A stretch of DNA of 62,530 nt, the filler included, from Basidiobolus ranarum (Eukaryota), in assembly GCA_040143965.1 (NCBI GenBank). It is 34 parts of 34 records of this genome, joined end to end, with 100 filler letters (N's around TTAATTAATTAA, not from the genome) between each part and the next. Parts side by side here need not be neighbours in the genome. Positions count along the whole stretch, not along the records: positions 38,745 to 40,484 come from JASJQH010004434.1; 33 more parts are not named here. One strand, written 5' to 3'. The notes beneath the pieces are model-generated. The model was given only the letters and a program-made list of their open reading frames with translations. It was not told where the DNA came from and did not search any database. The position numbers and the translations under genes are program-made. Within the stretch, counting starts at the first letter, position 1, and every line of letters begins with the position of its first letter. Below are positions 7,800 through 57,026 of the stretch, piece after piece.

Positions 7800-8714
7800 G
7801 TGTCCTCCTAGGTCTCTGTTGGCTTTGACACCTTATCAGGCATGGTTTGAAAGTAAATCAGATGTGGCCAATTGCAGAGTTTTTGGAAGTTCCACATGTG
7901 CAATAATTCCAGACCAGAAGAGATCAAAATTAGACCAAAAAAGCCAAAATACTTTTTTTGGGATATTGTGATCCAACCCAAGGGTAGAGACTATATGACA
8001 CTGAAGATAAAAAGCAAATCAAGTCAAGAGATGTGGAATTTGCTGAAGAAGAAAAAATTTCAATCAAAACAATTCAGGATCACAAAAAACAACCAAAAAT
8101 TGATGAAAATTCTTCTTTCTCACTCCAGATCCTGATTGGTGAGAAAAAAATTGAAAATACCTCACCTGCAGTCTCCTCAACAAAGCCTGAGGTGGTTTCA
8201 TTGCATAAATTGGTACACAAAGTTGTAGTGCAAGTTTCCCATTTTAGGAGATCTAAATGCATGAGATCTTTACCTGAGTACTACTCTCACTTTGGCTAAA
8301 GGAGCCTAGTGCATATTGAGCATTTCCTGATGAGCCTAAATCAGTACAGGAGGCTATGGAGAGTCCCAACACAGAGTTTTGGAGTGCTGCAATGGCAGAG
8401 AAGTATTCATTACTCATAGATAGCCAAACTTGGACTTTGGCTAAGTTACCTGATGACCAAAAAATAATTGCATGCAAATGGGCATTTAAAGTTAAACAGC
8501 AAGCTGATGGATCTGTAGAAAGAAATAAAGCCAGGCTTATGGTTCAAGGATACTCTCAAATGGAAGGAGTGGACTATAATGAAACATTTGCTCCTATAGC
8601 AAAGTTCAATTCTATCAGAACTGTACTAGCAGTGGCAGCAAAACAAAGCTTAAAAATCTATCAAATGGATGTTAAAGCTGCTATTTTGAATGGAGTCTTG
8701 GAAGAGGTTGTATT
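7800..8714 (+). mobile_element. Ty1/copia integrase C-terminus to RT N-terminus, decayed
   Basis: [69 protein letters not shown]. Confidence 0.95.
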
Positions 8715-8975
8715 TGTTGAAGTTTATTGTCTTTATCATATTTTTTATCTCTATCTCTATACACCCAACTATTATATATATTCCATATAAGTTAGTTAAC
8801 ATTACTTTGTAAAATATTACTTAAATGAAAATTAGCACATATATTATTTGTATATGTGAATAATGTGCAAATTGGCAGTTCCATATTGGAATTTACAAAC
8901 TTGTCCAAATTGCCCCAAAGATAGTTCATTTTACTCCCACAGATGTTCTGAACACAACCCCAGAGTTAGTTTTTG
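8715..8975 (+). repeat. Copia LTR family D (partial) inserted into the RT coding region
   Basis: Begins TGTTGAAGTTTATTGTC and matches 46557-46916. Confidence 0.85.
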
Positions 8976-11509: not shown

Positions 11510-12837
11510 TCAAGATATTAATCTTTTCAGATATTGTGACAATACTAGATCATATCCATACTTAACTTGATGACCAATGTATTCAAGTTCAGAGGATGTA
11601 AACATAGTGCTAAGGGCCAGAGGTGGTAAGCAGAAAGGAAGGTACTCAGTACAAACTAAATGGATAATAGGACAAAAACCTGGAATAATGCAAATCAAGA
11701 AAGGAGTCTTAGAGTCAAGGTATTGCTTCCAAAGGTTCAGCTGGAAGTCTATAGCAACAGTTTTAGGCTGTTTTGTTTCATGCAGCTGTAAAGCTAACTC
11801 AGAAACAAGAGGATCATCTTGTATCAATTTCCAGCATGATAGTGCATTTGAAGATGGTGTGGCTAACCACTTCTTAATCAGTGAATTTCTGCAGTCATTT
11901 AGTTGGAGTAGATATCTTGCCCTGAGTAAAGCTACTCTGATACGATATGGGAAGAATCCAAAAGTTTGATTCAGAGCATGATCAAAGGGAGTCTGAGGCA
12001 GTAGCTGATGAATCTATCAAGCTTAGAGTAGTCTCTTTGGTTGAGTGGGAGCAATGTACTCCGTATTCCAGAACTGGTATCACAAACTGCTTGAGAAGTG
12101 TTTGACAACAATGATAAGATGTATTGAGTGGTGTAACAGCAAGTAACTTATGAACATCCTGTTTAGCCAAGGCAATTCTAACTGACAAGTGTTTCTTCAC
12201 ATCAATGCCAGTTTGAGTAAATGGAAAGCCTAGATATGTTGCATGGTTCATATGAAGAAGCTGAATATCATACAAGGAAATGGTGCAATCAACTGGAATT
12301 GTTTTGGCACTAGAAAGCTCCAAGTTATTCTCTGAAAGGTATCTCTGAATAGTGGTAGGATCAAGCTGAGGCTGAGAAGTAGAAACTCTGAATTCATCAG
12401 CCAATAAAGTAAGCTGGGATCCAGGGGACAGCTGAGGAAAATTATTCAGAAATATCACAAAAAGCAGAGGACCTAGCACTGAACCTTGCACCACACCATT
12501 GGGCACTGGGTACAGGCAGGAAGTGAATTCAGGATCGAGGATTCTGGCTTTACTGTCAGTAAAGAGGGCTCTCACTAGCATAGTGCAGGACTTGGAAGTT
12601 AAAGACTGAAGCTTACTCCACAGTAGATCTCTGTCTACTAAGTCAAAGGCTTAGATGATGTCAAAGAGAATGGCAGATAGTGGATATTGCAAAGCATTGT
12701 CATGACTGAGTACCACAGCCATATCCAAGGAGAGCTTAGGAAGAAAGCCAAATTGACTAGTGTGAAAGCATGGAAGCCTCTCATGGATGGATTTCACTAA
12801 GAGCAGCTCAAACACCTTCCTAAAAGTAGGTAGCAAA
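11510..12837 (-). mobile_element. Non-LTR (LINE-like) retrotransposon reverse transcriptase, decayed
   Basis: KVFE...SQFGF, FDII*AFDLVDR, GVVQGSVLGPLLF, LLADE (degenerate FADD), YLGFPF. ORFs 12651-12836 and 11982-12581 share a frame and are separated by one stop. Confidence 0.9.
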
Positions 12838-12938
12838 NNNNNNNNNNNNNNNNNNNNNNNNNNNNNNNNNNNNNNNNNNNNTTAATTAATTAANNNNNNN
12901 NNNNNNNNNNNNNNNNNNNNNNNNNNNNNNNNNNNNNA

Positions 12939-13169
12939 GGCGGCCGGGGGGGACGGGGGCGCGGTCGTGGAGGTCGTGGTCGCGGTAGAAGAGGCCGGGG
13001 ACGTGGTCGTTTTGGAAGAGGTCGTGGTCGCTTTGGTCGTGGCCGGTTTGGCAGAGGTGGAAGATTTGGTCGTTTCGGTGGTCGCGGTTTTGGTAGATTC
13101 GGGAGATTTGGTTATGGTGGATATGGATGGAATGATGATTGTGGTGGAGATGATTGCGGAAGCTGTTAG
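12939..13169 (+). CDS. C-terminal part of a Gly/Arg/Phe-rich secreted-precursor paralog
   Basis: Frame absent from the ORF track: GGRGGRGRGRGG...RFGRGGRFGRFGGRGFGRFGRFGYGGYGWNDDCGGDDCGSC*. AATAAA follows at 13264. Shares gaagaggccggggacgtggtcgttttggaagagg with 14642. Confidence 0.85.
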   Translation, partial: GGRGGRGRGRGGRGRGRRGRGRGRFGRGRGRFGRGRFGRGGRFGRFGGRGFGRFGRFGYGGYGWNDDCGGDDCGSC

Positions 13170-25853: not shown

Positions 25854-26411
25854 TTTAACCTGGAGTAAAACTTTGGTTTCAGATTGTTTTTCATTGTTTT
25901 CTTATCCTACAATAGTGTCCCAAAGTCCTTTTTCTTGCAGCAGCTTTTCATTTTAATTTTCCATACTTGATAATTGGTTCAATCCAATTTTTCAGAAGAG
26001 GGAAAAGTTCCATAAATTTGAGAAGTAGTCATTACAGAGAGTGCAAGCTCAGGGCTCATATCCTGTTAAAGTATTTGGGAGCCTGTTGGAAGTGGTTTGG
26101 GGAATTAGAGGAATTGGTGGTTTTTACTCATTGATTTATTGAGTAGAAAGTTGACATTTATAGTTTTGTCAAGATATAAACAAACTAACATGTAGAATAT
26201 GTTAAGAAAGGTCCCAGGAGCATGTGTGCAAAGTTTTGGGCTTCTAGCACAAGTTTGAAAAATCTATATATCTGAGAACTTCTAAGTTGGTAAAAATATT
26301 CTAAGTAAATTCTGATTTAGAATAATTGATAATATCTTAGTGAATTATAAGATGACTAAGTGCCAAGCTATATATGTCTATGTAGGTATTTAGGCAATGC
26401 TAATTTCAACA
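25854..26411 (-). mobile_element. Copia 5' end: complete LTR A (26064-26411), PBS (26052-26063) and start of gag
   Basis: TGTTGAAA...TTTAACA followed by GGATATGAGCCC, then gag ..EKLD*TNYQVWKIKMK. Confidence 0.88.
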
Positions 26412-27596
26412 CACAGGAATGCTATTTTCTTCATTGTTTTGGTTTGAATCAACTTCAATGATTGGATCATGAGAAAACTTATTTTCATCATCATCTGAGG
26501 TAATTTTGGGTGAAAATTTTTCAATTTCATTAAACAAAACATCCCTGGACTTAATTAACTTGGAAATTTTGGTATCATAGAGTCTGTAGGCCTTAGTTTG
26601 AGTACAATAACCCAGAAGTATGCATTTCTTACTTTTGGGATCAAATTTAGACCAATTTTTGGTCACAATTTTGACATAAACAATGCATCCAAAGTTCCTC
26701 AAATGTTTTACATCAGGTTTAACTGCAAACCAAGCTTGATATGGTGTAGAGTTAGACAGACTTAAAAGAAAAGTATATTCTCCAACATTATCTGTACATA
26801 TTTTCTTGATTTTAGTTCCAGTTTCAGTCTTCACAAGTGTTTTAAAATCTCTAAAGATGGAGAGAGCTTCTTCTTTTCTTTCCATAAAGTAGACCCAAGT
26901 TTATCTTGTATAATCATCAATAAATGTGATTATATATCTTTTTCCACCTAAAGATAAATTTTGCATAGGTCCACACAAATCTGAATGAATTAGATCCAAT
27001 TTTTTTCTTGTCTTGTGGTCTACACCCAAGCACTCTTCTGCCTTCTAGCCTCTTGTTGTTGTTTCCAGTCCTTGTCCAGTTCCTTATTGTGACACCTGTT
27101 GTAGATCTCCTGTCTTCAATATCTCTTCTCCAATTTGTATCTAAATAAGCCATCAGATCAAATTTTGATCAAGAATATGTGTATTTTAAGCATAGATCCA
27201 CAGTAACTTTCAAATACCAGAAAATTCACATAACTGTTATGATTTGATCAGATCCATAATTTTGAAGATATTGGCACATAACTCCCACAGAATATGCAAT
27301 ATCTGCCCCTGTTCCAACCATGATATACATCAGACTACCAACCATACATTGATAAGGAAATTTCTGGCTTTCATTTGAATCCAAGAATGTCTAATTTGAG
27401 CCATTTTTGGTCAAGTTAAGATTTGTCTCCATTGGGGTAGATACTGGATAACATTCTTCTATTTTAAACTTCTTTAGTATATCTGGGATATACTTAGACT
27501 GGTTTAAAGTTATTGTTTTGGTAGTTCTATCTATCTTAATTTGGATTCCAAGATAGTACATCAGTTCACCTAGATCAGTCATTTTGAATTTGGCAG
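26412..27596 (-). mobile_element. Copia integrase and RT fragments with an LTR B fragment (27007-27093)
   Basis: KICTDNVGEY, SKFDPKSKKCILLGY, MTDLGELMYYLGIQI, DIEDRRSTTG. Confidence 0.9.
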
Positions 27597-27695: not shown

Positions 27696-29438
27696 NGCCA
27701 TATCCAACTAATCTTCCTTTGTACGTTTCTATGGTTCCAACAGATTGGATTTTGACTTTTTAGACCCATTTGCAACCTATTGGCTATCTCCCAGATGGAA
27801 GAGGACTTAAAACACATGTTTTATTGTCCTGAAGTGAAGAAAACTCATCTGACATTGCTTTTTCCCATGAATTTGATTCTGGACACTCCAAAGCTTGATC
27901 TAGAGTCTGTGGCTTGTCACAGAATACTGCATAAGTGTATACATCATCATTGAAAGTGTTTCACCAATTTCCTGGCTAATTTCTCCTTCTGGATGATATC
28001 CCGGGTCCTGAATCATGCTTTGATTTAATTGGGACTGAAATTTTGGTTGAATAGGGCTCTGATATAGCTGGAAATTTGTCAGATGCTTCTGGAATAGTGC
28101 TGGTTGTGTTTTCTGGATGTAGAACTGTGAATTGAGGTGAAAAATTTGCTTTTTCATCAAAAATCACTTGATTAACTTCTGATATTTGGTATCAAACAGT
28201 CTGTAGGCCTTGGATCCACAAAGTAACCAAGAATTATGCATTTTCTGCTTTTAGGTTTCAATTCTGAGCATTTTTGAGCTGAAATTAGGCAATATGCTAT
28301 GTACCAAAGATCCTGAGATGATCCACACTTGGTTTTGAACCTAGAGGGCTTCAAATGGAGTAGAATTTTGTAGCAATCTTATTGGGCATCTGTTTTTGAT
28401 ACAGACTGCAGTGGAGACAGATTCAGCCCAATATTGGTAATCTAACTTTTGATCATGTAACATTGATCTTGCCACCTCCACTATGGTCCTATTAGCACAT
28501 TCTGCAACTCCATTTTGCAGTGGAGTATAAGGTACAGTAGTTTGTTGCTTAATTCCATGGACTTGTTCCTTTGTGCCAGGATTTATCAGACCTTGGTTCA
28601 GTATATTAGAGTAAATGTGTTTGAAATTGATCATGCTGGAGGGTGATGGATATTGCCAAATTGTGCCGCATAAATTTTTGAACACATTATCCAATATAGT
28701 ATATACAGCACAATCTGGCATTATCACTAGGAACAAGTCTCATGTTAAGAGCAAAAACTAGCAAAGTCCTTAGAGCAGTATTCTCCACCATTATCACTCC
28801 TTAGTAACCTTACTTTTTGTGCTGATTCTTTCTCTACCATTGCTTTGTAGTGCTTGAACATAGCTAAGGTTTCTGATTTTGATTTGAGAAAGAATACCCA
28901 AATATATCTTGTTTTATCATCAATAGAAGTCATAGAGTACCTGTTTGCACCCAATAAGACATTTTGCAGGGGCTTACATAGTTCTGAAAGAATCAGGTAA
29001 AAATGGTGAGTGGATTTGATTTCTCTAGAGCTTAAAAATTGCTGTCTTTGATGTTTTCCGTATATGCAACCTTCACACAGATCCACTTTAGTGATATTTC
29101 CAATTTCTAAGCCTGAAACAAGCTGATTTTGGATCATTTGGGTCAGTTTCTGTTCCCCAATATGGCCTCATTTTCTATGCCATGTTTGAAAACTTATTTC
29201 ACCAGTTTTGGCCAAGTTTGCATGCTCAGAATTCAATTTGTTGATTTCTAGCTTGTATAAGTTTTGAGTTTTGAACCCAGTAGCTCATTTGGTATTATTC
29301 TGATTTGTGATAGTGCATCCAGCCTTGTTGAGCATAACATTTAATCCTTGAGTTGTTGCTTGGCTCACTGAGAGTAGATTCTTGGCTATATTTGGTACAT
29401 AGAGTACATCATCAAATTTTGCAGATGGTGTAGCTGAA
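27696..29438 (-). mobile_element. Copia pre-integrase/integrase to RT start, same family as 1-1750
   Basis: CEGCIYGKHQR, LRSDNGGEY, VPYTPLQNGVAE, CKWV. Colinear with 1-1060. Confidence 0.93.
28559..28740. mobile_element. 182-bp MITE with 12-bp TIR and 3-bp TSD (CAT)
   Basis: cat[GGACTTGTTCCT...AGGAACAAGTCT]cat. The empty site aattgcatgtt is present in the paralogous integrase at ~352-362. Confidence 0.88.
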
Positions 29439-38744: not shown

Positions 38745-39233
38745 GTAGATGTGTCATTGCTTTAATAGATTACCCCTTGGCTAAAACATTAGTACTGCAT
38801 ATCTTGATCTATCTCACCAAGAAGTCTATCTTGCAGCTTTCCTAAAAATACTATCAGATTATCACACAAGCAAATTAGTCCAATCATAGAGATACTTACT
38901 CTGTGTCTATGGATTGGGCTTTGTTGCTGTTATTGTGCTCAAACAATGCAAAAACCTGTGAGTACATTGAAAAGAGCCCTTTGTTGGCAGGTTAATATAC
39001 TCTGGAGTCTCTATAACCCATTGGATACATCCATCACTGATTTTGCTGATACATTTTTAATCAGATTAACATATGGTAATACTGATAATTTCACACTAAG
39101 CATCATTTCACTGCAGGTGTGCTCCATTGAGAACTCCCAGAATGTATAGCAAGGGCCTATAATCTCTAAGCATTGTGAAAGATGCAGCAGGGAAAGTATT
39201 GAATACTGGCATAGATTCAGTCTATCTTCTTTA
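38745..39233 (-). mobile_element. CMC/EnSpm transposase C-terminal fragment
   Basis: Reverse-complement match to ~5670-6155. Confidence 0.85.
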
Positions 39234-39342
39234 TGTTGAAATTAGCATTGCCTAAACACCTATATAGTCATATATAACTTAGTAATTAGTTATCTTATAA
39301 CTCACTAAGATATTATCAATTAGTCTCAATTGGAATTTACTT
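39234..39342 (+). repeat. LTR family A, first ~110 bp only
   Basis: TGTTGAAATTAGCATTGCCTAAACACC...GGAATTTACTT, then an abrupt switch to the RPB2-like sequence. Confidence 0.88.
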
Positions 39343-40421
39343 CAACCCTCCAATATCTGCCCTATCGTCATACGTCCCGGAATCGCATGCGGATTAATTA
39401 TTAAATCCGGCACTATACCATCCTCCGTAAATGGCAAATCCTCCTGAGGCATAATTATCGTTACAACACCCTTTTGCGCATGCCTAGACGCAACCTTGTC
39501 ACCAACCTCTATGTACTTATGAAAATCTGTTATCACCTTAATGTGCTTCCGTTGATTATGCAAAACTTCCGTAACCCTCCCTTTATCACATTTAACAACC
39601 CTTATCTTCTTCTCCGTTACCCCATCCACCACCGTACACATTATATCACCCTCTTCTAATATCCCACCCACCTTCGGTACACCATTTAAATACTTCTTCT
39701 CATCAGATGTATCCCTGGTCACAATTATTTTGGACTCATCACCCAAAAGTTCACAGATGTTAACATGTTTGATAAAAGATTGAAATAAACCCCTGTCAAC
39801 AGCAGACTTAGAAATAATAACGCCATCTTCCTGATTATATCCAGTGTATGACTGTATCATCACCACCAAATTAACCCCGTTTGGTTGCTCCTCCATCCCC
39901 AATAATTTATACGCAACCGTATTCACCAATGGCACCTGGGCATATTCCAAAAAGTTTATATCCCCAGAAGTTATTATAGAAGGAACATAAACCTGCATAC
40001 TTTGTTTTATCATAGCAGAAGCAAATACATTACGAGCTGACTGGTTGTGATTAGCACATGGAACCATAGATGCCGGAATACCCATCATCACCACTGGATG
40101 GATTTCCATATGAGTATACATTTGATGGTTACCGTGATACCCTATGTCACCCAACTTAAGTTTATATTGCTCATCAGGATCCACAAACTCTATCTTGCCA
40201 GATTCCAAAAGTTCATCCCAAGAAAGTTTACCCAACTTGTTCCAATCTATTGGTGCACCAGAAAGTTTAAACAGCGGTCTAAGGAACCTTCCTGGAGAAG
40301 TTTTAACATAAATAATTCTTGGGATTGGTTTGTAATATGAGACAGAAATCATAGGATGAATTTGTTTGAGTTTAGTCCTGAGAGATTTGAACTTGCCAGG
40401 GGATTGCTGATAATAGGTTAG
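39342..40421 (-). CDS. DNA-directed RNA polymerase second-largest subunit (RPB2/beta-like) fragment, divergent and probably of large DNA virus type; truncated at both ends
   Basis: [67 protein letters not shown]. The frame stays open upstream to a stop at 40422-40424. No introns. Confidence 0.93.
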
Positions 40422-40955
40422 TTATTACCGTTGCACCCCAGAAACTCATTGTACCCCATACTAGAGTATAACCTAAGAAAGCAGNNNNNNNNNNNNNNNN
40501 NNNNNNNNNNNNNNNNNNNNNNNNNNNNTTAATTAATTAANNNNNNNNNNNNNNNNNNNNNNNNNNNNNNNNNNNNNNNNNNNNCGCCATACAGGCCAAT
40601 GCACGCTCTACACACCACCACGAACGACCATTCGCACGGAGAAACTATTTCAGCCATTCCACTGAGGTGTTTGGGTTAATCCAAAATAAACCAAGATTTA
40701 CGGTGACTCGAATCCGTAGCAACCTACTAAGCCAATAAAACCTTTGTTACTCACAAAATCAGTGTCCCATCAGCCCAAAACAAGGATGAAGTAACATTGA
40801 TATTTAGTCATATCCACCTGGCACATGGGTTTGTTGTCTTCTGTACAAAGGGGCTTTTCCACGTAACTTTTGTAGCCCCGGTTTGGTTCTGCGTTGATAT
40901 ATAGCTTGACCCTATAAATTTGTTACTGAGCCTTACACTTCGACTTTATTTACTC

Positions 40956-41894
40956 ATGTCGAGCTTACCACACATTCCTATTAAATATTTAAGTCTTCTA
41001 ATACTGGTCATTCAGAATAGTGCGTTGACCTTAGTGTTCAAATATTCTACCAACCAAGGTCAATATGCTACTTCGACTGCAGTTCTCCTCTCTGAATTCT
41101 TAAAACTCATACTCTGCTTCACGCTATGTAAGCAAGAGGAGAAGGCTTATCAATGTCACAAGAGAATGCCCATATTCTAACGGATATTTGGCCCTGACTC
41201 TTGGAAAATGATCATTCCAGCTGGACTATACACCATTCAAAACAACCTTCAATATATAGCAGTGAAGCTTCTTGACCCAGCTACCTTTCAAGTTACCTAT
41301 CAGCTAAAGATTCTCACCACTGCTCTTTTTTCGGTTCTCATATTAGGCCGTAGATTAACTCCGAAGAAGTGGGTTTCTCTGTTACTTCTTACACTTGGGG
41401 TAATCCTGGTCAAGACCTCCTCCCAGAAATCTCAGGAGAGTCCGGAATTTAACGCTCAACGAACTCTTGGATTTCTTGCAGTACTCAGCGCGTGTGTATT
41501 ATCGGGTCTTGCGGGTGTTTATTTCGAGAAGATTCTCAAAGGAAGTCAAAGCTCACTCTGGGTTCGTAATACTCAGTTATCTTTCTTTTCGCTGTTTCCG
41601 GCGTTTTTCTTGGGGGTTTTGTGGATGGACGGAGAATCAGTTAGAACCCATGGATTTTGGTATCAATACAATGTATGGACATTCGGGGCAATTGGATGTC
41701 AAGCATTTGGTGGTATGATCGTTGCTGTGGTAGTTAAGTATGCCGATAATATTCTCAAAGGATTTGCAACAAGCATCTCTATTGTATTATCCAGTGTCAT
41801 CTCCATATTTCTATTTGATTTCCAGATGACACCTACTTTCGTGATAGGGGCTACACTAGTTATATACTCTAGCTATTTATATGGTTTGGATTGA
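40956..41894 (+). CDS. Nucleotide-sugar (UDP-galactose-type, SLC35A) transporter with an in-frame TAA at 41178-41180
   Basis: KYLSL..LVIQNSAL, STAVLLSEFLKL, IPAGLYTIQNNLQY, DPATFQVTYQLKILTTA, SGLAGVYFEKILKG, SLWVRNTQLS, VVKYADNILKGFATS. Confidence 0.9.
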
Positions 41895-46102: not shown

Positions 46103-47470
46103 TGATATATTCTCCTGAATATATTTATAGAGTTCTTCATACCCAATGTTTAGCTCATACCCAACACGAGTTTGTGTCAATATCTCCATCAAAGACAATT
46201 TTAATCCATTTGGGATTGACCATTTACTTAACATCATGAAATTGTCAAATTAGATTTGATTTTAATCAATTTTTCAGTTTCAGGAGTGAAATTTCAAGAT
46301 CGCACAAAATAGTTGTGCATGATTGGCTACAATCTCAGTGAACTATGGATCAACATATGTGCAAAGAACATAACTAAAATTTTTCACATATACTACCTGA
46401 ATGCTAATTTGTCACCTTCAAAATCCTTAGTTTCTTTCATCTTTTCTCATAAATATTATTAGTGAGTTGTTCATACCCAAGGTTTAGCACCTATTCAACA
46501 CAAGTTTGTATCAATATCTCCATCAAAGCCCATCATTGTTTTAATGCTGCTGAATCTGTTGAAGTTTATTGTCTTTATCATAGTTGTTATCTCTATCAAT
46601 ATACATATAACTATTTCATATATCAGGAATAAGTTAGTTGATATCACTTAATTGAAAATTGGAACATATATATAAATACATAAATAATGTGAGAATTAGC
46701 AATTCAATATTGGAAATTTCAAACTTGTCCATATTGCCCCAAAGATAGCTCATTTTACTCCTATAGATGCTCTGAATACAACCCCAGTGTTATTTTTTTT
46801 TATTTCCACCAAAATGTATAAATGCTGTATTTCTGGACAAAAAAAAATAATCTCACAGAGCTGTTCACAACTCCACTTTTCCAAAGTTCCTGCAAACAGC
46901 CTATATTTTCCCAATAGAATCAACATTCCTCCAGCTATCTGGCAGATACCGTGCAATATTGTGCCACTTTGTATTAAGTTCTTCCCAGATATCTGAATGG
47001 TCTGCACCAGACTGAATGTCAATATGAATGTGCTTCATCTGAGGCCACTTTCTACATACTGGCACTGCATGTTTCCCTTCATACTTTCAAAAATACTCCT
47101 CAAGTGCTTTGACAATTTTAAACATTCTTGTAGTGTGACATTACAGAGGGTGCTTTGCCATGTTTGTGTGGTTTTTAGCTTGCTTTTAGGTTGAGGGATA
47201 ATTTCAACACTTTGAAAAGTATAAGCTGATGTTGGAGAGCCAACAGCTTGATTTGCTGGTATTTTGGCCTGTTGAGAGGTGCCAGGTGCTTAATAAGCTT
47301 CCAAATTTAGCACTCTTCCAACTGGTGTACCTGGTTTCATGGTGAAACTAAGCTTTTTTGCCAGAACATCTGACTCTGGAAATGCAGATCATTGTAATGG
47401 TTAGAAAGATTTGGTACATGAAACAGGCAAGCCTGAACTCTCTGGCCCCTTTGCTTTTTCCTTGGGTTTA
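46103..47470 (-). mobile_element. CMC/EnSpm ORF2-side arm carrying a solo LTR
   Basis: Its start (KPKEKAK) overlaps 60660-60696, and it continues into sequence matching 14784-15260. Confidence 0.65.
46557..46916 (+). repeat. Solo LTR family D (360 bp) with 5-bp TSD GAATC
   Basis: gaatc[TGTTGAAG...CCCAATA]gaatc. The empty site gctgaatcaacattc is at ~9103-9118. Confidence 0.92.
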
Positions 47471-47841
47471 GCTGATCAGGAATAGGAAGAGGCTGTAGGA
47501 GGCCATAGGGCTGATGTCTTGGAGTCTTCACTTGAGCACAAGTATCACAGGTCAAAACATAAGTCTTGACAAATGCAAACATTTTGGGCCACCAATAATC
47601 CCTTGATACCAACATATATGATTTGGCAACACCAAAGTGTCCTGCTAGTGGTGAGTCATGTCTTTCCTGCATGATTTTGAGTCTGGAAGTGTGGTCTGGA
47701 ATGTAAAGTTGCTTCTTATAAAACAAGAGATCATTTATGATAGAGAAATGGTGGTACAGGTTCAAGCTTGAGAGGTCTTTGGGTGTTTCCTGGGCTTTCT
47801 TGATTGATTTTACCAATGGGTCTTCAGATTGAAGTTTGTGG
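47471..47841 (-). mobile_element. Ty3/gypsy integrase zinc-binding (H2C2) fragment
   Basis: HDSPLAGHFG...VSRDYWWP....VKTYVLTCDTCAQVK..RHQPYGLLQPLPIP. Confidence 0.93.
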
Positions 47842-54145: not shown

Positions 54146-55190
54146 TTTGGGTCATGTTGGAGCTGAAAATATGGGAAATTTAATATAGAACAAGATGTTT
54201 AAGGACTAAATTTAGTAATTGCACCAGATCTGGAGCTATGTGAAGGTTGACTATATGGTAGGCTACATGGATAGACATTTGTGGGCTCTGGAATGAGCAA
54301 AATGGATAAAAAAATCGGTCCTGATACACTCAGATCTGTGTGGCCCAAAGCAGACAAAATCCTTAGGCAGAAACAGGTACTTTAAGACCTTTATTGATGA
54401 TAAGACAATGTATACTTGGGTGTACTTTTGGGCTAGTAAGGATGAAGCCTTTGATACCTTCAAGAAGTTCAAAGCAATGGTGAAGACTGAAACAGGTCTA
54501 AAGATTAAGATTATCCATACTGATAATGGAGGGGAATATATCTCAAACTCTTCTCTAACTTTTGCTCAACATATAGGTTAAAACACCAGACTACAGTGCC
54601 ATATTCTCCACAGCAGAATGGAGTAGCAGAGCATGCAAACAGATCAATAATGGAAAAGGCAAGATCTATCCTTCACAATAAAGATTTACCACAACAGTTC
54701 TGGGCTGAATTGGTTGCAACTGCACTATGTATTAGGAATAGATGTCTTTCTAGGTCTCTATTGGCTATGACACCTTATCAAGCTTGGTTTAGAAGTAAAC
54801 CTGATGTGGCTAATCTCAGAGTTTTTGGAAGTACCACATATGCAATGATTCCAGACCAGAAGAGATCAAAATTAGACCAAAAAAGCCAGAAATGTCTTTT
54901 TTTGGGATATTGTGATGGAACAAAAGGGTACAGGCTATATGACACTGAAAATAAGAGGCTAATCAAGTCAAGGGATGTGGAATTTGCTGAAGAAGAAAAA
55001 TTTTCAATCAAAACAATCCAACATCAAGAAAAACAACCAAAAATTGATGAAAATTCTTCTTTTTCTCACCAAATCCTAATAACTGAGAAAAACATTGAAA
55101 ATCTTGCACCTGCAGTGTCCTCAACTAAGCCTGAGGTGGTTTCATTGCCTAAATTGGTAGTAGAAGTTGTAGTGCCAATTTCCCATCTTA
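54146..55190 (+). mobile_element. Copia integrase
   Basis: LIHSDLCGP, IHTDNGGEY, PYSPQQNGVAE, KCLFLGY, SRDVEF. Confidence 0.95.
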
Positions 55191-55290: not shown

Positions 55291-57026
55291 CTAAACTGCT
55301 ATATTTTGCTCAGATCCATAACAGTGAAGATATTGTCACATAACTCCCACAGCATGTGCAATATCTGACTGTGTTCCAACCATGATATACATCAAACTAC
55401 CAACCATAGATTGATAAGGAAGTTTTTGGCTTTCATTTAAATCCAAGAACATCTGATTTGAGCCATTTTTGGTCAAGTTGAGATTTGTCTCCATTGGGGT
55501 AGATACTGGATTATATTCTTCCAATTTAAACTGATTTAGTATATCTAGGATATACTTAGACTGGTTTAAAGTTATTGTTTTGGTAGTTCTATCAATCTTA
55601 ATTTGGATTTCAAGAAAGTATGTCAGTTCACCAAGATCAGTCATTTTGAATTTGGCAGATAAGCTGGATCCGGTTTTCTCCAAAGTCTTCAAATCATTGG
55701 TTGCTATAATAAGGTCATCTACATATAAGGCTAATAAAACTGAGTTTGTCTTATCTGGCCTGAAGTAAATACTATCTTCAGTACTACTCTTTTGGAATTT
55801 GAGTGTTTCCAAAAATGCATTTATTTTGCTATTCCAAGCTCTGGGAGATTGTTTTCTGAAGTCTGCAAGCTTTTTTAGGGCTATCTGGGTCCATAAAGCC
55901 ATCTAGATTGTCCATAAAGATCTCCTCAGCAAGCTCACCATTCAAAGAAGCAGTTTGAACATCCATTTGATGTATAAAAACTGATATTTAGCTGAAAGTG
56001 CAAGAATCAATCCAATTGAATTAAACTTTGCTACAGGTGCAAAAGTTTCTGTATAAGCTATTCCTGGTATTTGAGAATAACCCCTAACAAAAATTAAATT
56101 GATTTGATCCGGATTGGATCCACCCTTCTAAATTGCAAAACTGTCAGAGAACCATCACATTATTAGTGGCTTGTATTCTGCCAGGGATTTTGATGGTGTG
56201 ACAGCAGTTTCTTGATGGTATTATCATGGTATTTGTATATGTTAAATTATTGATCCTCATATTTGGCATGCATTAGTAATATCTGGCAATTTTTGCAAAA
56301 TAAAATTTTTGAGTGCAAATTACTGGGTTTACTACTACAGGAATTCAAATTAATAAGCATGCCTTTATTTAGATATTTTAGGCATTGTATTCCAGCCATA
56401 ATGAGAATCAAAAAATAGAAGAATCTTGTTTTGTTTAGTCTCTACATATGCACATAGTGGAATGCTCAGACTTAACTCAACAACATCAATATGCTTTACC
56501 AGCAAACTAATGGTTAAAAATTGCTAAACATCGGAAATTTTGAATAGCACTGACACTTGGCAAATAGCTGACTCTTGTTACCATTCACAATGAGAATAAG
56601 CCCTTGGATTTAGGAAATTTGTGTAAAGAATTCAGCCAATATATCCACAACTTGCTGTCAACAAATGTCCTGCCACAAGTAGATGTGACATTGCTTGAAT
56701 AGATTACCCTATGGCTGAAGCAATAATACTGCATATCTCAATCTATCTCACCAAGAAGTCTGTCTTGCAGCTTTCCTAGAAATACCATCAGATTATTACA
56801 TAAGCAAATTAGTCAAAATTATGGAGGTACTCACTCTGTGTCCATGAATTGGGCTTTGTTGCTGTTATTGTGCTTAAACAATACAAAAACTTGTACATGT
56901 TGGCTGACTACTCCCACTGCAAAAGAAATATATGGTTTGGTACCAGTCATAGCATAGATCAAACTACCTGCCATAGATTGATAAGGGAACTCAGGGCTTT
57001 CAATTGACATATTTTGAGCCATATTT
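55291..57026 (-). mobile_element. Copia RT (55291-56081) interrupted by a CMC/EnSpm end (TIR at 56082, extending to ~56895), then another RT piece
   Basis: KQSPRAWN and LALYVDDL. CCCTAACAAAAAT abuts the GYSQ codons. Confidence 0.9.

Follow-up and report, generated by a model that had tools for sequence, protein, structure and literature searches.

Fundsalphaviruses are endogenous elements resembling the nucleocytoplasmic large DNA viruses (NCLDVs), described from 14 fungi in six phyla, among them Basidiobolus meristosporus, B. heterosporus, Mortierella elongata, and M. verticillata (Gong, Zhang & Han 2020, Virus Evolution, PMC7017919). They were detected with the family-B DNA polymerase (PolB) as the marker and probe, and on this protein they neighbor Pithovirus (PMC7017919). 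The genes that they share are D5, a D6/D11-like SNF2 helicase, an S-adenosylmethionine (SAM) methyltransferase, RPB2, RPB5, and two separate genes for the N- and C-terminal parts of RPB1; the evidence for capsid and ATPase genes is ambiguous (PMC7017919). Retrotransposon sequences lie near some of the elements, and NCLDV-like sequences from mosses have been placed inside the lineage (PMC7017919). Here we analyze a stretch of 62,530 bases (below, at its full length, the window) from the B. ranarum assembly GCA_040143965.1 and, within it, a fragment of an RPB2-type gene, which codes for the second-largest subunit of RNA polymerase.

Two further systems are relevant to such a fragment. The Mycodnaviridae/Mycodnavirales are giant viruses of zoosporic fungi, for which integrated copies as well as active infections have been described (Myers et al.; PMC13524828). 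Zymocin-like cytoplasmic linear plasmids (VLEs) have recently been reported in Zoopagomycota and Mucoromycota (PMC13348850).

The B. ranarum fragment is most likely a dead internal piece, about 35%, of a viral RPB2 gene from a donor of the fundsalphavirus type, integrated in a Basidiobolus-like nuclear genome. An earlier reading of the same DNA (the original prediction) had proposed an integrated or co-sequenced large DNA virus in a fungal lineage, and its core, a virus-type polymerase fragment integrated in a fungal genome, is supported.

An internal RPB2 fragment on a short contig

The window is not contiguous genome. It consists of 34 pieces arranged in strictly decreasing length (1750 to 1734 bp), with 33 identical artificial spacers (N44-TTAATTAATTAA-N44) between them. 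Because the pieces are artificially joined, arguments from neighborhood are invalid across any spacer. The genuine genomic context of the RPB2 fragment is one contig of 1740 bp (JASJQH010004434.1; Table 1).

This contig carries an open frame longer than any other in the 34 pieces. It extends for 359 codons from stop to stop, or 336 amino acids (aa) from the first ATG, in agreement with the intron-less RPB2 frame of about 360 codons predicted originally. The Pfam family RNA_pol_Rpb2_6 (PF00562) matches frame residues 117 to 358 over positions 2 to 275 of the 373-position profile, with an E value of 1.1e-61. RPB2 domains 4 and 5 match weakly, below the Pfam cut-offs, and the Pfam scan of the 359-codon frame gave no match to PF04560 or PF04565. 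GYNQED is found at residue 194, GDK at residue 307, and SRHAQKG at residue 312. All of the motif blocks noted previously, including PGRMT, could be located in the frame, as could the spacing of 113 aa between GYNQED and GDK.

The fragment has domain 6 of the RPB2/beta-subunit superfamily, with its GYNQED and GDK...SRHxQKG blocks, and is not a complete subunit. The frame aligns to residues 453 to 790 of a 966-aa relative (P0001) at 51% identity. About 450 residues are missing on the N-terminal side and 176 on the C-terminal side; domain 6 lacks its end, and domain 7, the clamp/zinc ribbon, is wholly absent. The earlier statement that all expected RPB2 blocks are present was therefore wrong, and the fragment is the internal middle third of the gene, not the whole gene. 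In the virus, the protein would form the catalytic cleft jointly with RPB1, as is established for the family.

Table 1. Features of the contig that carries the RPB2 fragment (positions in the window)
Feature	Position	Strand	Evidence
Contig holding the fragment	38745-40484		Piece bounded by spacers
Host interspersed repeat A, retrotransposon-associated	38745-39233		87-89% identity to 3 other window contigs
Host interspersed repeat B	39234-39345		82-89% identity to 4 other window contigs
TGA stop at the junction of viral sequence and repeat B	39342-39344	-	Repeat matches end at 39342-39345
Stop-to-stop open frame, 359 codons	39342-40421	-	Frame scan
Internal fragment derived from viral RPB2, 1.05 kb (most likely reading)	39345-40397	-	PF00562 (E 1.1e-61), homologue alignments, tree
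Clade signature HNQSARN[VI]F[SA]S[SA]M[IV]KQ	40002-40049	-	DNA pattern
Cytochrome b fragment, 29 codons, reaching the contig end	40396-40482	-	PF00033 (E 4.4e-10), profile positions 112-140 of 189

The fragment belongs to a clade of compact RPB2 proteins

A search among longer proteins returned about 80 compact RPB2s, roughly 750 to 1100 aa in length and 37 to 51% identical to the fragment. These proteins have Pfam domains 3, 6, and 7 only and lie on contigs of up to 125 kb; two of them come from Mortierella sp. GBA30 and Podila clonocystis. When proteins of similar length were searched, the nearest was a protein of B. meristosporus CBS 931.73 (P0244), 83% identical and encoded on a 164-kb scaffold, followed by a B. 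ranarum protein (P0245, 79%) and a Mortierella alpina protein (42%). Another member of the compact clade, the 398-aa protein P0248, stems from the EukProt data set (SM prefix), and its label does not look fungal.

A careful maximum-likelihood tree was built from 53 rows and 376 columns (IQ-TREE, LG+C20 PMSF; support is given as UFBoot / SH-aLRT). The fragment joined the two Basidiobolus proteins with support of 100/99, and these joined P0001 and P0002 with 100/97. The compact clade as a whole comprised 26 rows, among them the proteins of Mortierella sp. GBA30, M. alpina, and Podila clonocystis, and was recovered with 100/100. Eighteen giant-virus RPB2s from IMG/VR (98/97) and nine archaeal RpoBs (99/93) both stood apart from it. 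A quick tree of 97 rows gave the same grouping.

Members of the clade carry a signature around HNQSARN (Table 1). As a DNA pattern, it had a single match in the window and none in 100 shuffles. It was absent from all 159 IMG/VR giant-virus loci, and it retrieved one stretch from the IMG/VR viral contigs and nine from JGI metagenome contigs. The combination of HNQSARN[VI]F[SA]S[SA]M[IV]KQ with SRHAQKG picks the clade cleanly from metagenomes and could serve as a probe. A profile scan of IMG/VR returned mostly ordinary giant-virus RPB2s, plus one locus with a compact relative (L081), and a search of the ESM Atlas with P0001 gave generic RPB2 clusters only. In single-protein scans, P0018 had no match in viral or metagenome contigs and P0079 had none in genome contigs.

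Comparison with solved structures argues against a subunit of the host. The best match was archaeal subunit B (200 bits, 4e-58), and mammalian RPB2 scored 179 bits. The fungal subunits scored 164 (Saccharomyces cerevisiae Rpb2), 158 (Schizosaccharomyces pombe Rpb2), 150 (Rpc2), and 136 bits (Rpa135), and the viral ones 121 (African swine fever virus homologue) and 71 bits (vaccinia rpo132). Since the scores of a host orthologue with the fungal structures would be several times as high, the fragment is not taken to be part of host Pol I, II, or III. Its scores with compact relatives were 599 bits for the B. meristosporus protein and 374 bits for P0001. A virus-type protein rather than a host paralog had been predicted, and the contrast between 599 bits for the Basidiobolus copy and 136 to 164 bits for the budding and fission yeast subunits, together with full support for the compact clade, agrees with it. 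Archaeal subunit B outscored eukaryotic Pol II and was about level with metagenomic giant-virus RPB2s, an observation that may bear on the branching of the clade.

Junctions with host repeats and a cytochrome b piece

Read along the minus strand, the contig presents the cytochrome b piece (40482-40396), the RPB2 fragment, the TGA codon (39344-39342), and host repeats. The repeats fill the approximately 600 bp beyond the TGA; repeats A and B match seven other contigs at 82 to 89% identity, and one partner contig of repeat A (55291-57026) bears a copia-type reverse transcriptase frame (RVT_2). The edge of repeat B and the end of viral homology agree within 3 bp. The polymerase had been described as embedded in fungal repeats, which is correct inside the 1740-bp contig, with its repeat flanks, and incorrect at the scale of the window, where the 34 contigs are unrelated.

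At the opposite end, RPB2 homology starts within a few bases of the cytochrome b piece. The alignment with the B. ranarum protein P0245 begins at query residue 9 (about 40397), and the first 8 codons of the open frame are not derived from RPB2 and share their bases with the cytochrome b piece, which is read in a different frame. Upstream homology extends about a dozen residues further against P0245 than against P0001. The cytochrome b piece probably represents mitochondrial DNA that was copied into the nucleus. At two positions it departs from the usual LPxGQMS motif.

We also considered whether the TGA that follows ILEG could be read as tryptophan under the mitochondrial code. The read-through is unlike the GLxGK continuation of the relatives, and the stop sits in repeat B; this reading was rejected.

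The break of viral homology in mid-gene at both ends, one of them within 3 bp of the edge of a repeat family present in four other contigs, argues against an assembly chimera, that is, a misjoining of reads from a free or episomal virus with mitochondrial and repeat reads in which nothing is integrated. The B. meristosporus relative on its 164-kb scaffold and the decayed B. ranarum copy further show that integration occurs in the genus. We consider a chimera unlikely, even though the contig is just 1740 bp long in a very fragmented assembly, and joins three unrelated kinds of sequence at junctions known from the assembled contig alone. The viral part is also undecayed, as a chimera would have it, with an open frame and 59 of 62 clade-invariant residues kept (in an alignment of 30 clade members).

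Preservation of the Basidiobolus copies

At the three invariant sites where it is changed, the query has T for S, G for A, and V for I; two of these changes are shared with the B. meristosporus protein. Because the frame is open and conserved residues are intact, the fragment appears to have decayed little since it left a working viral gene. The B. meristosporus protein P0244 keeps 91 of 95 invariant residues and reaches the natural C-terminus. The B. ranarum protein P0245 keeps 56 of 67, with radical changes among its residues and unrelated sequence at its end. Decay has advanced to different degrees among the copies in Basidiobolus: the B. meristosporus one looks intact, and the B. ranarum one is decayed.

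Differences between the query and P0244 affect 6 of 92 conserved columns versus 34 of 182 variable columns (Fisher p = 0.0065). No such bias was found between the query and P0245 (p = 0.25). The simplest reading of the sequences is that the query and the B. meristosporus copy would have diverged in functional viral genomes and that the query was integrated fairly recently. A single old integration that then decayed slowly is a possible, though less simple, alternative.

As a gene, the query cannot be functional. Lacking both ends, it cannot build a polymerase. This makes it very unlikely that we are dealing with a viral polymerase gene domesticated by the host and maintained by selection in Basidiobolus. 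Such a gene would be expected to have an open frame, to retain conserved residues, as both the query and the B. meristosporus protein do, and to show differences that avoid conserved columns. The last signal, however, is accounted for just as well if the copies diverged within viruses and were integrated separately afterwards. The query has lost about 450 residues on the N-terminal side and 176 on the C-terminal side, the clamp/zinc-ribbon region among them, and ends in a repeat. In the B. ranarum copy, 11 of 67 invariant residues are gone, and it runs into unrelated sequence.

Gene neighborhood of the metagenomic relatives

The loci of relatives studied here are those retrieved by the signature plus L081. 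They cover 7 to 21 kb of contigs of up to 93 kb, and 58 open reading frames (ORFs) in them were scanned. The RPB2 fragment has no second viral gene on its own 1740-bp contig, and a tblastx comparison of the 34 window pieces with 11 loci of relatives gave strong matches for the RPB2 contig only. One other piece (12938-14683) had weak matches to L169 and L164 that look repetitive or of low complexity (best E value, 3e-8).

The relatives' loci consist of densely packed, intron-free frames with a G+C content of 33 to 46%. A D5 primase-helicase stands beside the compact RPB2 in L081 and L165 (D5_N + DUF5906) and, on the evidence of DUF5906 alone, in L166. PolB with an exonuclease domain (PF00136 + PF03104) is found in L081 and L167, and an SNF2/ResIII helicase lies beside the compact RPB2 in L081 and L171. 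RPB5 accompanies it in L162, L167, and L168. RPB1 is split, with a separate N-terminal gene in L169 and L171 and a separate C-terminal gene in L162, L167, and L168. Genes of the replication and transcription core of Nucleocytoviricota (PolB, D5, and multisubunit RNA polymerase) are present in L081, L165, L166, L167, L169, and L171.

Two loci code for proteins with a heterokaryon incompatibility (HET) domain (L165, 2-1783, minus strand; L167, 12044-13897, plus strand), which hint at fungal hosts. A DUF5757 protein, 625 to 670 aa long where complete, is encoded directly beside the compact RPB2 in L161, L164, L166, L169, and L171, and may be an uncharacterized partner of the compact polymerase. 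It had no match among solved structures by sequence. In all, four unannotated neighboring ORFs were compared with PDB sequences: three had no match, and the fourth had one weak esterase-like match (E value, 0.005).

This gene content also bears on whether the fragment could come from the RNA polymerase of a VLE, which we regard as highly improbable. In gene architecture, the polymerase of VLEs is a fused beta/beta-prime protein, unlike the separate RPB1 pieces and RPB2 of the fragment's relatives. The VLE arrangement of a fused polymerase beside a protein-primed PolB on a contig of about 8 to 26 kb does not describe the relatives. The plasmids reported from these fungi do carry NCLDV-derived polymerase genes and, in one of them, a HET-domain gene (PMC13348850), and HET-domain genes also occur in L165 and L167. 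However, the PolB of the relatives' loci is an ordinary one (PF00136 + PF03104), whereas that of VLEs is protein-primed, and the relatives' contigs reach 125 kb as opposed to plasmids of 9 and 13 kb (PMC13348850).

It is also highly improbable that the fragment is a cellular subunit of RPB2 type that has diverged, whether in the host, in a contaminating eukaryote, or in an archaeon. Archaeal RpoB chains are the top solved-structure matches (4e-58), and the homologue list contains archaeal proteins from rank 82 onward, 36 to 37% identical to the fragment. But yeast Rpb2, Rpc2, and Rpa135 reach 164, 150, and 136 bits versus 599 bits for the Basidiobolus copy, the compact clade is split from archaea with 100/100 support, and its members have D5, PolB, and helicase genes as neighbors.

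Other sequences in the window

Repeats are widespread in the window, with 26 of the 34 pieces resembling some other piece over 100 bp or more. Twenty of the longest frames were scanned with Pfam, 19 from other pieces and one from the repeat flank of the RPB2 contig. Nine had a match: eight to retroelement domains and one to the ERG4/ERG24 family, the latter a piece of a sterol reductase at 18476-18949 (plus strand). Fragments of copia- and gypsy-type retrotransposons (gag, RVT_1, RVT_2, and integrase) were located at 1150-1749, 8320-8787, 11985-12650, and 26409-26900, and further fragments of these types at 28748-29167, 47340-47840, 54527-55189, and 55339-55902.

A nucleotide-sugar transporter (41208-41894, plus strand) is encoded on a separate contig and so is no neighbor of the RPB2 fragment. 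It is 86% identical to its B. meristosporus counterpart; Basidiobolus paralogues are 68 to 72% identical, and proteins of other early-diverging fungi at most 65%. These similarities point to a Basidiobolus-like fungus as the host.

Origin and significance of the fragment

The donor would have been an NCLDV-like virus with a compact RPB2, RPB5, a split RPB1, D5, PolB, and an SNF2-type helicase. Viral DNA may have been captured at a chromosome break next to the mitochondrial cytochrome b piece, and the 3' side of the RPB2 gene may have been cut off by, or joined to, retrotransposon-related repeats at or after integration. What is left would be a relic without function in the fungus.

Several points weigh against this account. 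Capsid, A32 ATPase, and VLTF3 families were found in none of the 58 ORFs from the 7- to 21-kb pieces of the relatives' contigs, so that the label "virus" is drawn from replication and transcription genes alone. The SAM methyltransferase of the gene set of Gong et al. was not seen in the relatives' loci either. The compact clade is separate from, and not nested within, the sampled giant-virus RPB2s. The trees comprise the compact clade, IMG/VR giant viruses, and archaea; of the homologues named for such a tree in the original prediction, the archaeal and giant-virus ones are represented, and labeled eukaryotic RPA2, RPB2, and RPC2 (Pol I, II, and III) are not. Both junctions (39342-39345 and 40396-40397) are known from the assembled contig alone. 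Finally, we infer that the fragment belongs to the fundsalphavirus lineage from hosts and gene set, not from direct sequence comparison.

A bolder version of the integration account, which we put forward tentatively and hold to be possible rather than likely, is that the integration is young and that the virus lineage still circulates in Basidiobolus and other soil fungi. The unbroken frame and the 59 of 62 invariant residues kept despite truncation at both ends are consistent with it. Where the query differs from the B. meristosporus copy, conserved sites tend to be spared, which would be expected for divergence in replicating viruses, and the metagenomic relatives are dense and intact-looking, on contigs of up to 125 kb, some with fungal-type HET-domain genes. 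If this were true, terrestrial non-zoosporic fungi would host living mid-sized NCLDV-like viruses, none of which has been isolated, and Basidiobolus would be a place to look for one.

The fragment is one more well-preserved trace of large DNA viruses from terrestrial fungi of early-diverging lineages, for which no virus has been isolated. Its good preservation, and the pattern of intact-looking and decayed copies, hint at recent viral activity in Basidiobolus.

Comparison with known systems

Archaeal RNA polymerase subunit B resembles the fragment in its domain 6 blocks and is its best solved-structure match. It differs in having SRHGQKG and PSRMT in place of SRHAQKG and PGRMT (structure alignments), is 36 to 37% identical to the fragment, and falls in a separate clade. 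The giant-virus RPB2s of the IMG/VR GVMAG set belong to the same family, share its conserved blocks, and are 31 to 37% identical over the fragment. They differ in length (about 1000 to 1100 aa), in the absence of the HNQSARN.F.S.M.KQ signature (0 of 159 loci), and in forming a clade of their own (98/97). The Mycodnaviridae are also Nucleocytoviricota tied to fungi; by description, they differ in being related to Imitervirales/Algavirales, with assemblies of up to 350 kb, and in occurring in chytrids and Blastocladiomycota (PMC13524828).

The closest resemblance is to the fundsalphaviruses. The original prediction placed the fragment in a fungal lineage where few large DNA viruses are described; this does not hold, since B. 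meristosporus and B. heterosporus are already listed as hosts and RPB2 as a shared gene (PMC7017919). The original prediction also took the polymerase to be possibly irido/asco/marseille-like; the published neighbor of the fundsalphaviruses on PolB is Pithovirus (PMC7017919). The finding is genuine and for the most part expected, being another copy from a lineage whose gene set and host genus were published in 2020, and it brings no new kind of biology. Five of the six listed shared genes, and the PolB marker, are seen in the relatives' loci; the host genera (Basidiobolus and Mortierella) are the same, and so are the retroelement flanks. The difference is that the RPB2 copy described here is a 1.05-kb internal fragment on a short contig, joined to cytochrome b. 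Because PolB was the probe of Gong et al., a lone RPB2 fragment of this kind would escape their list.

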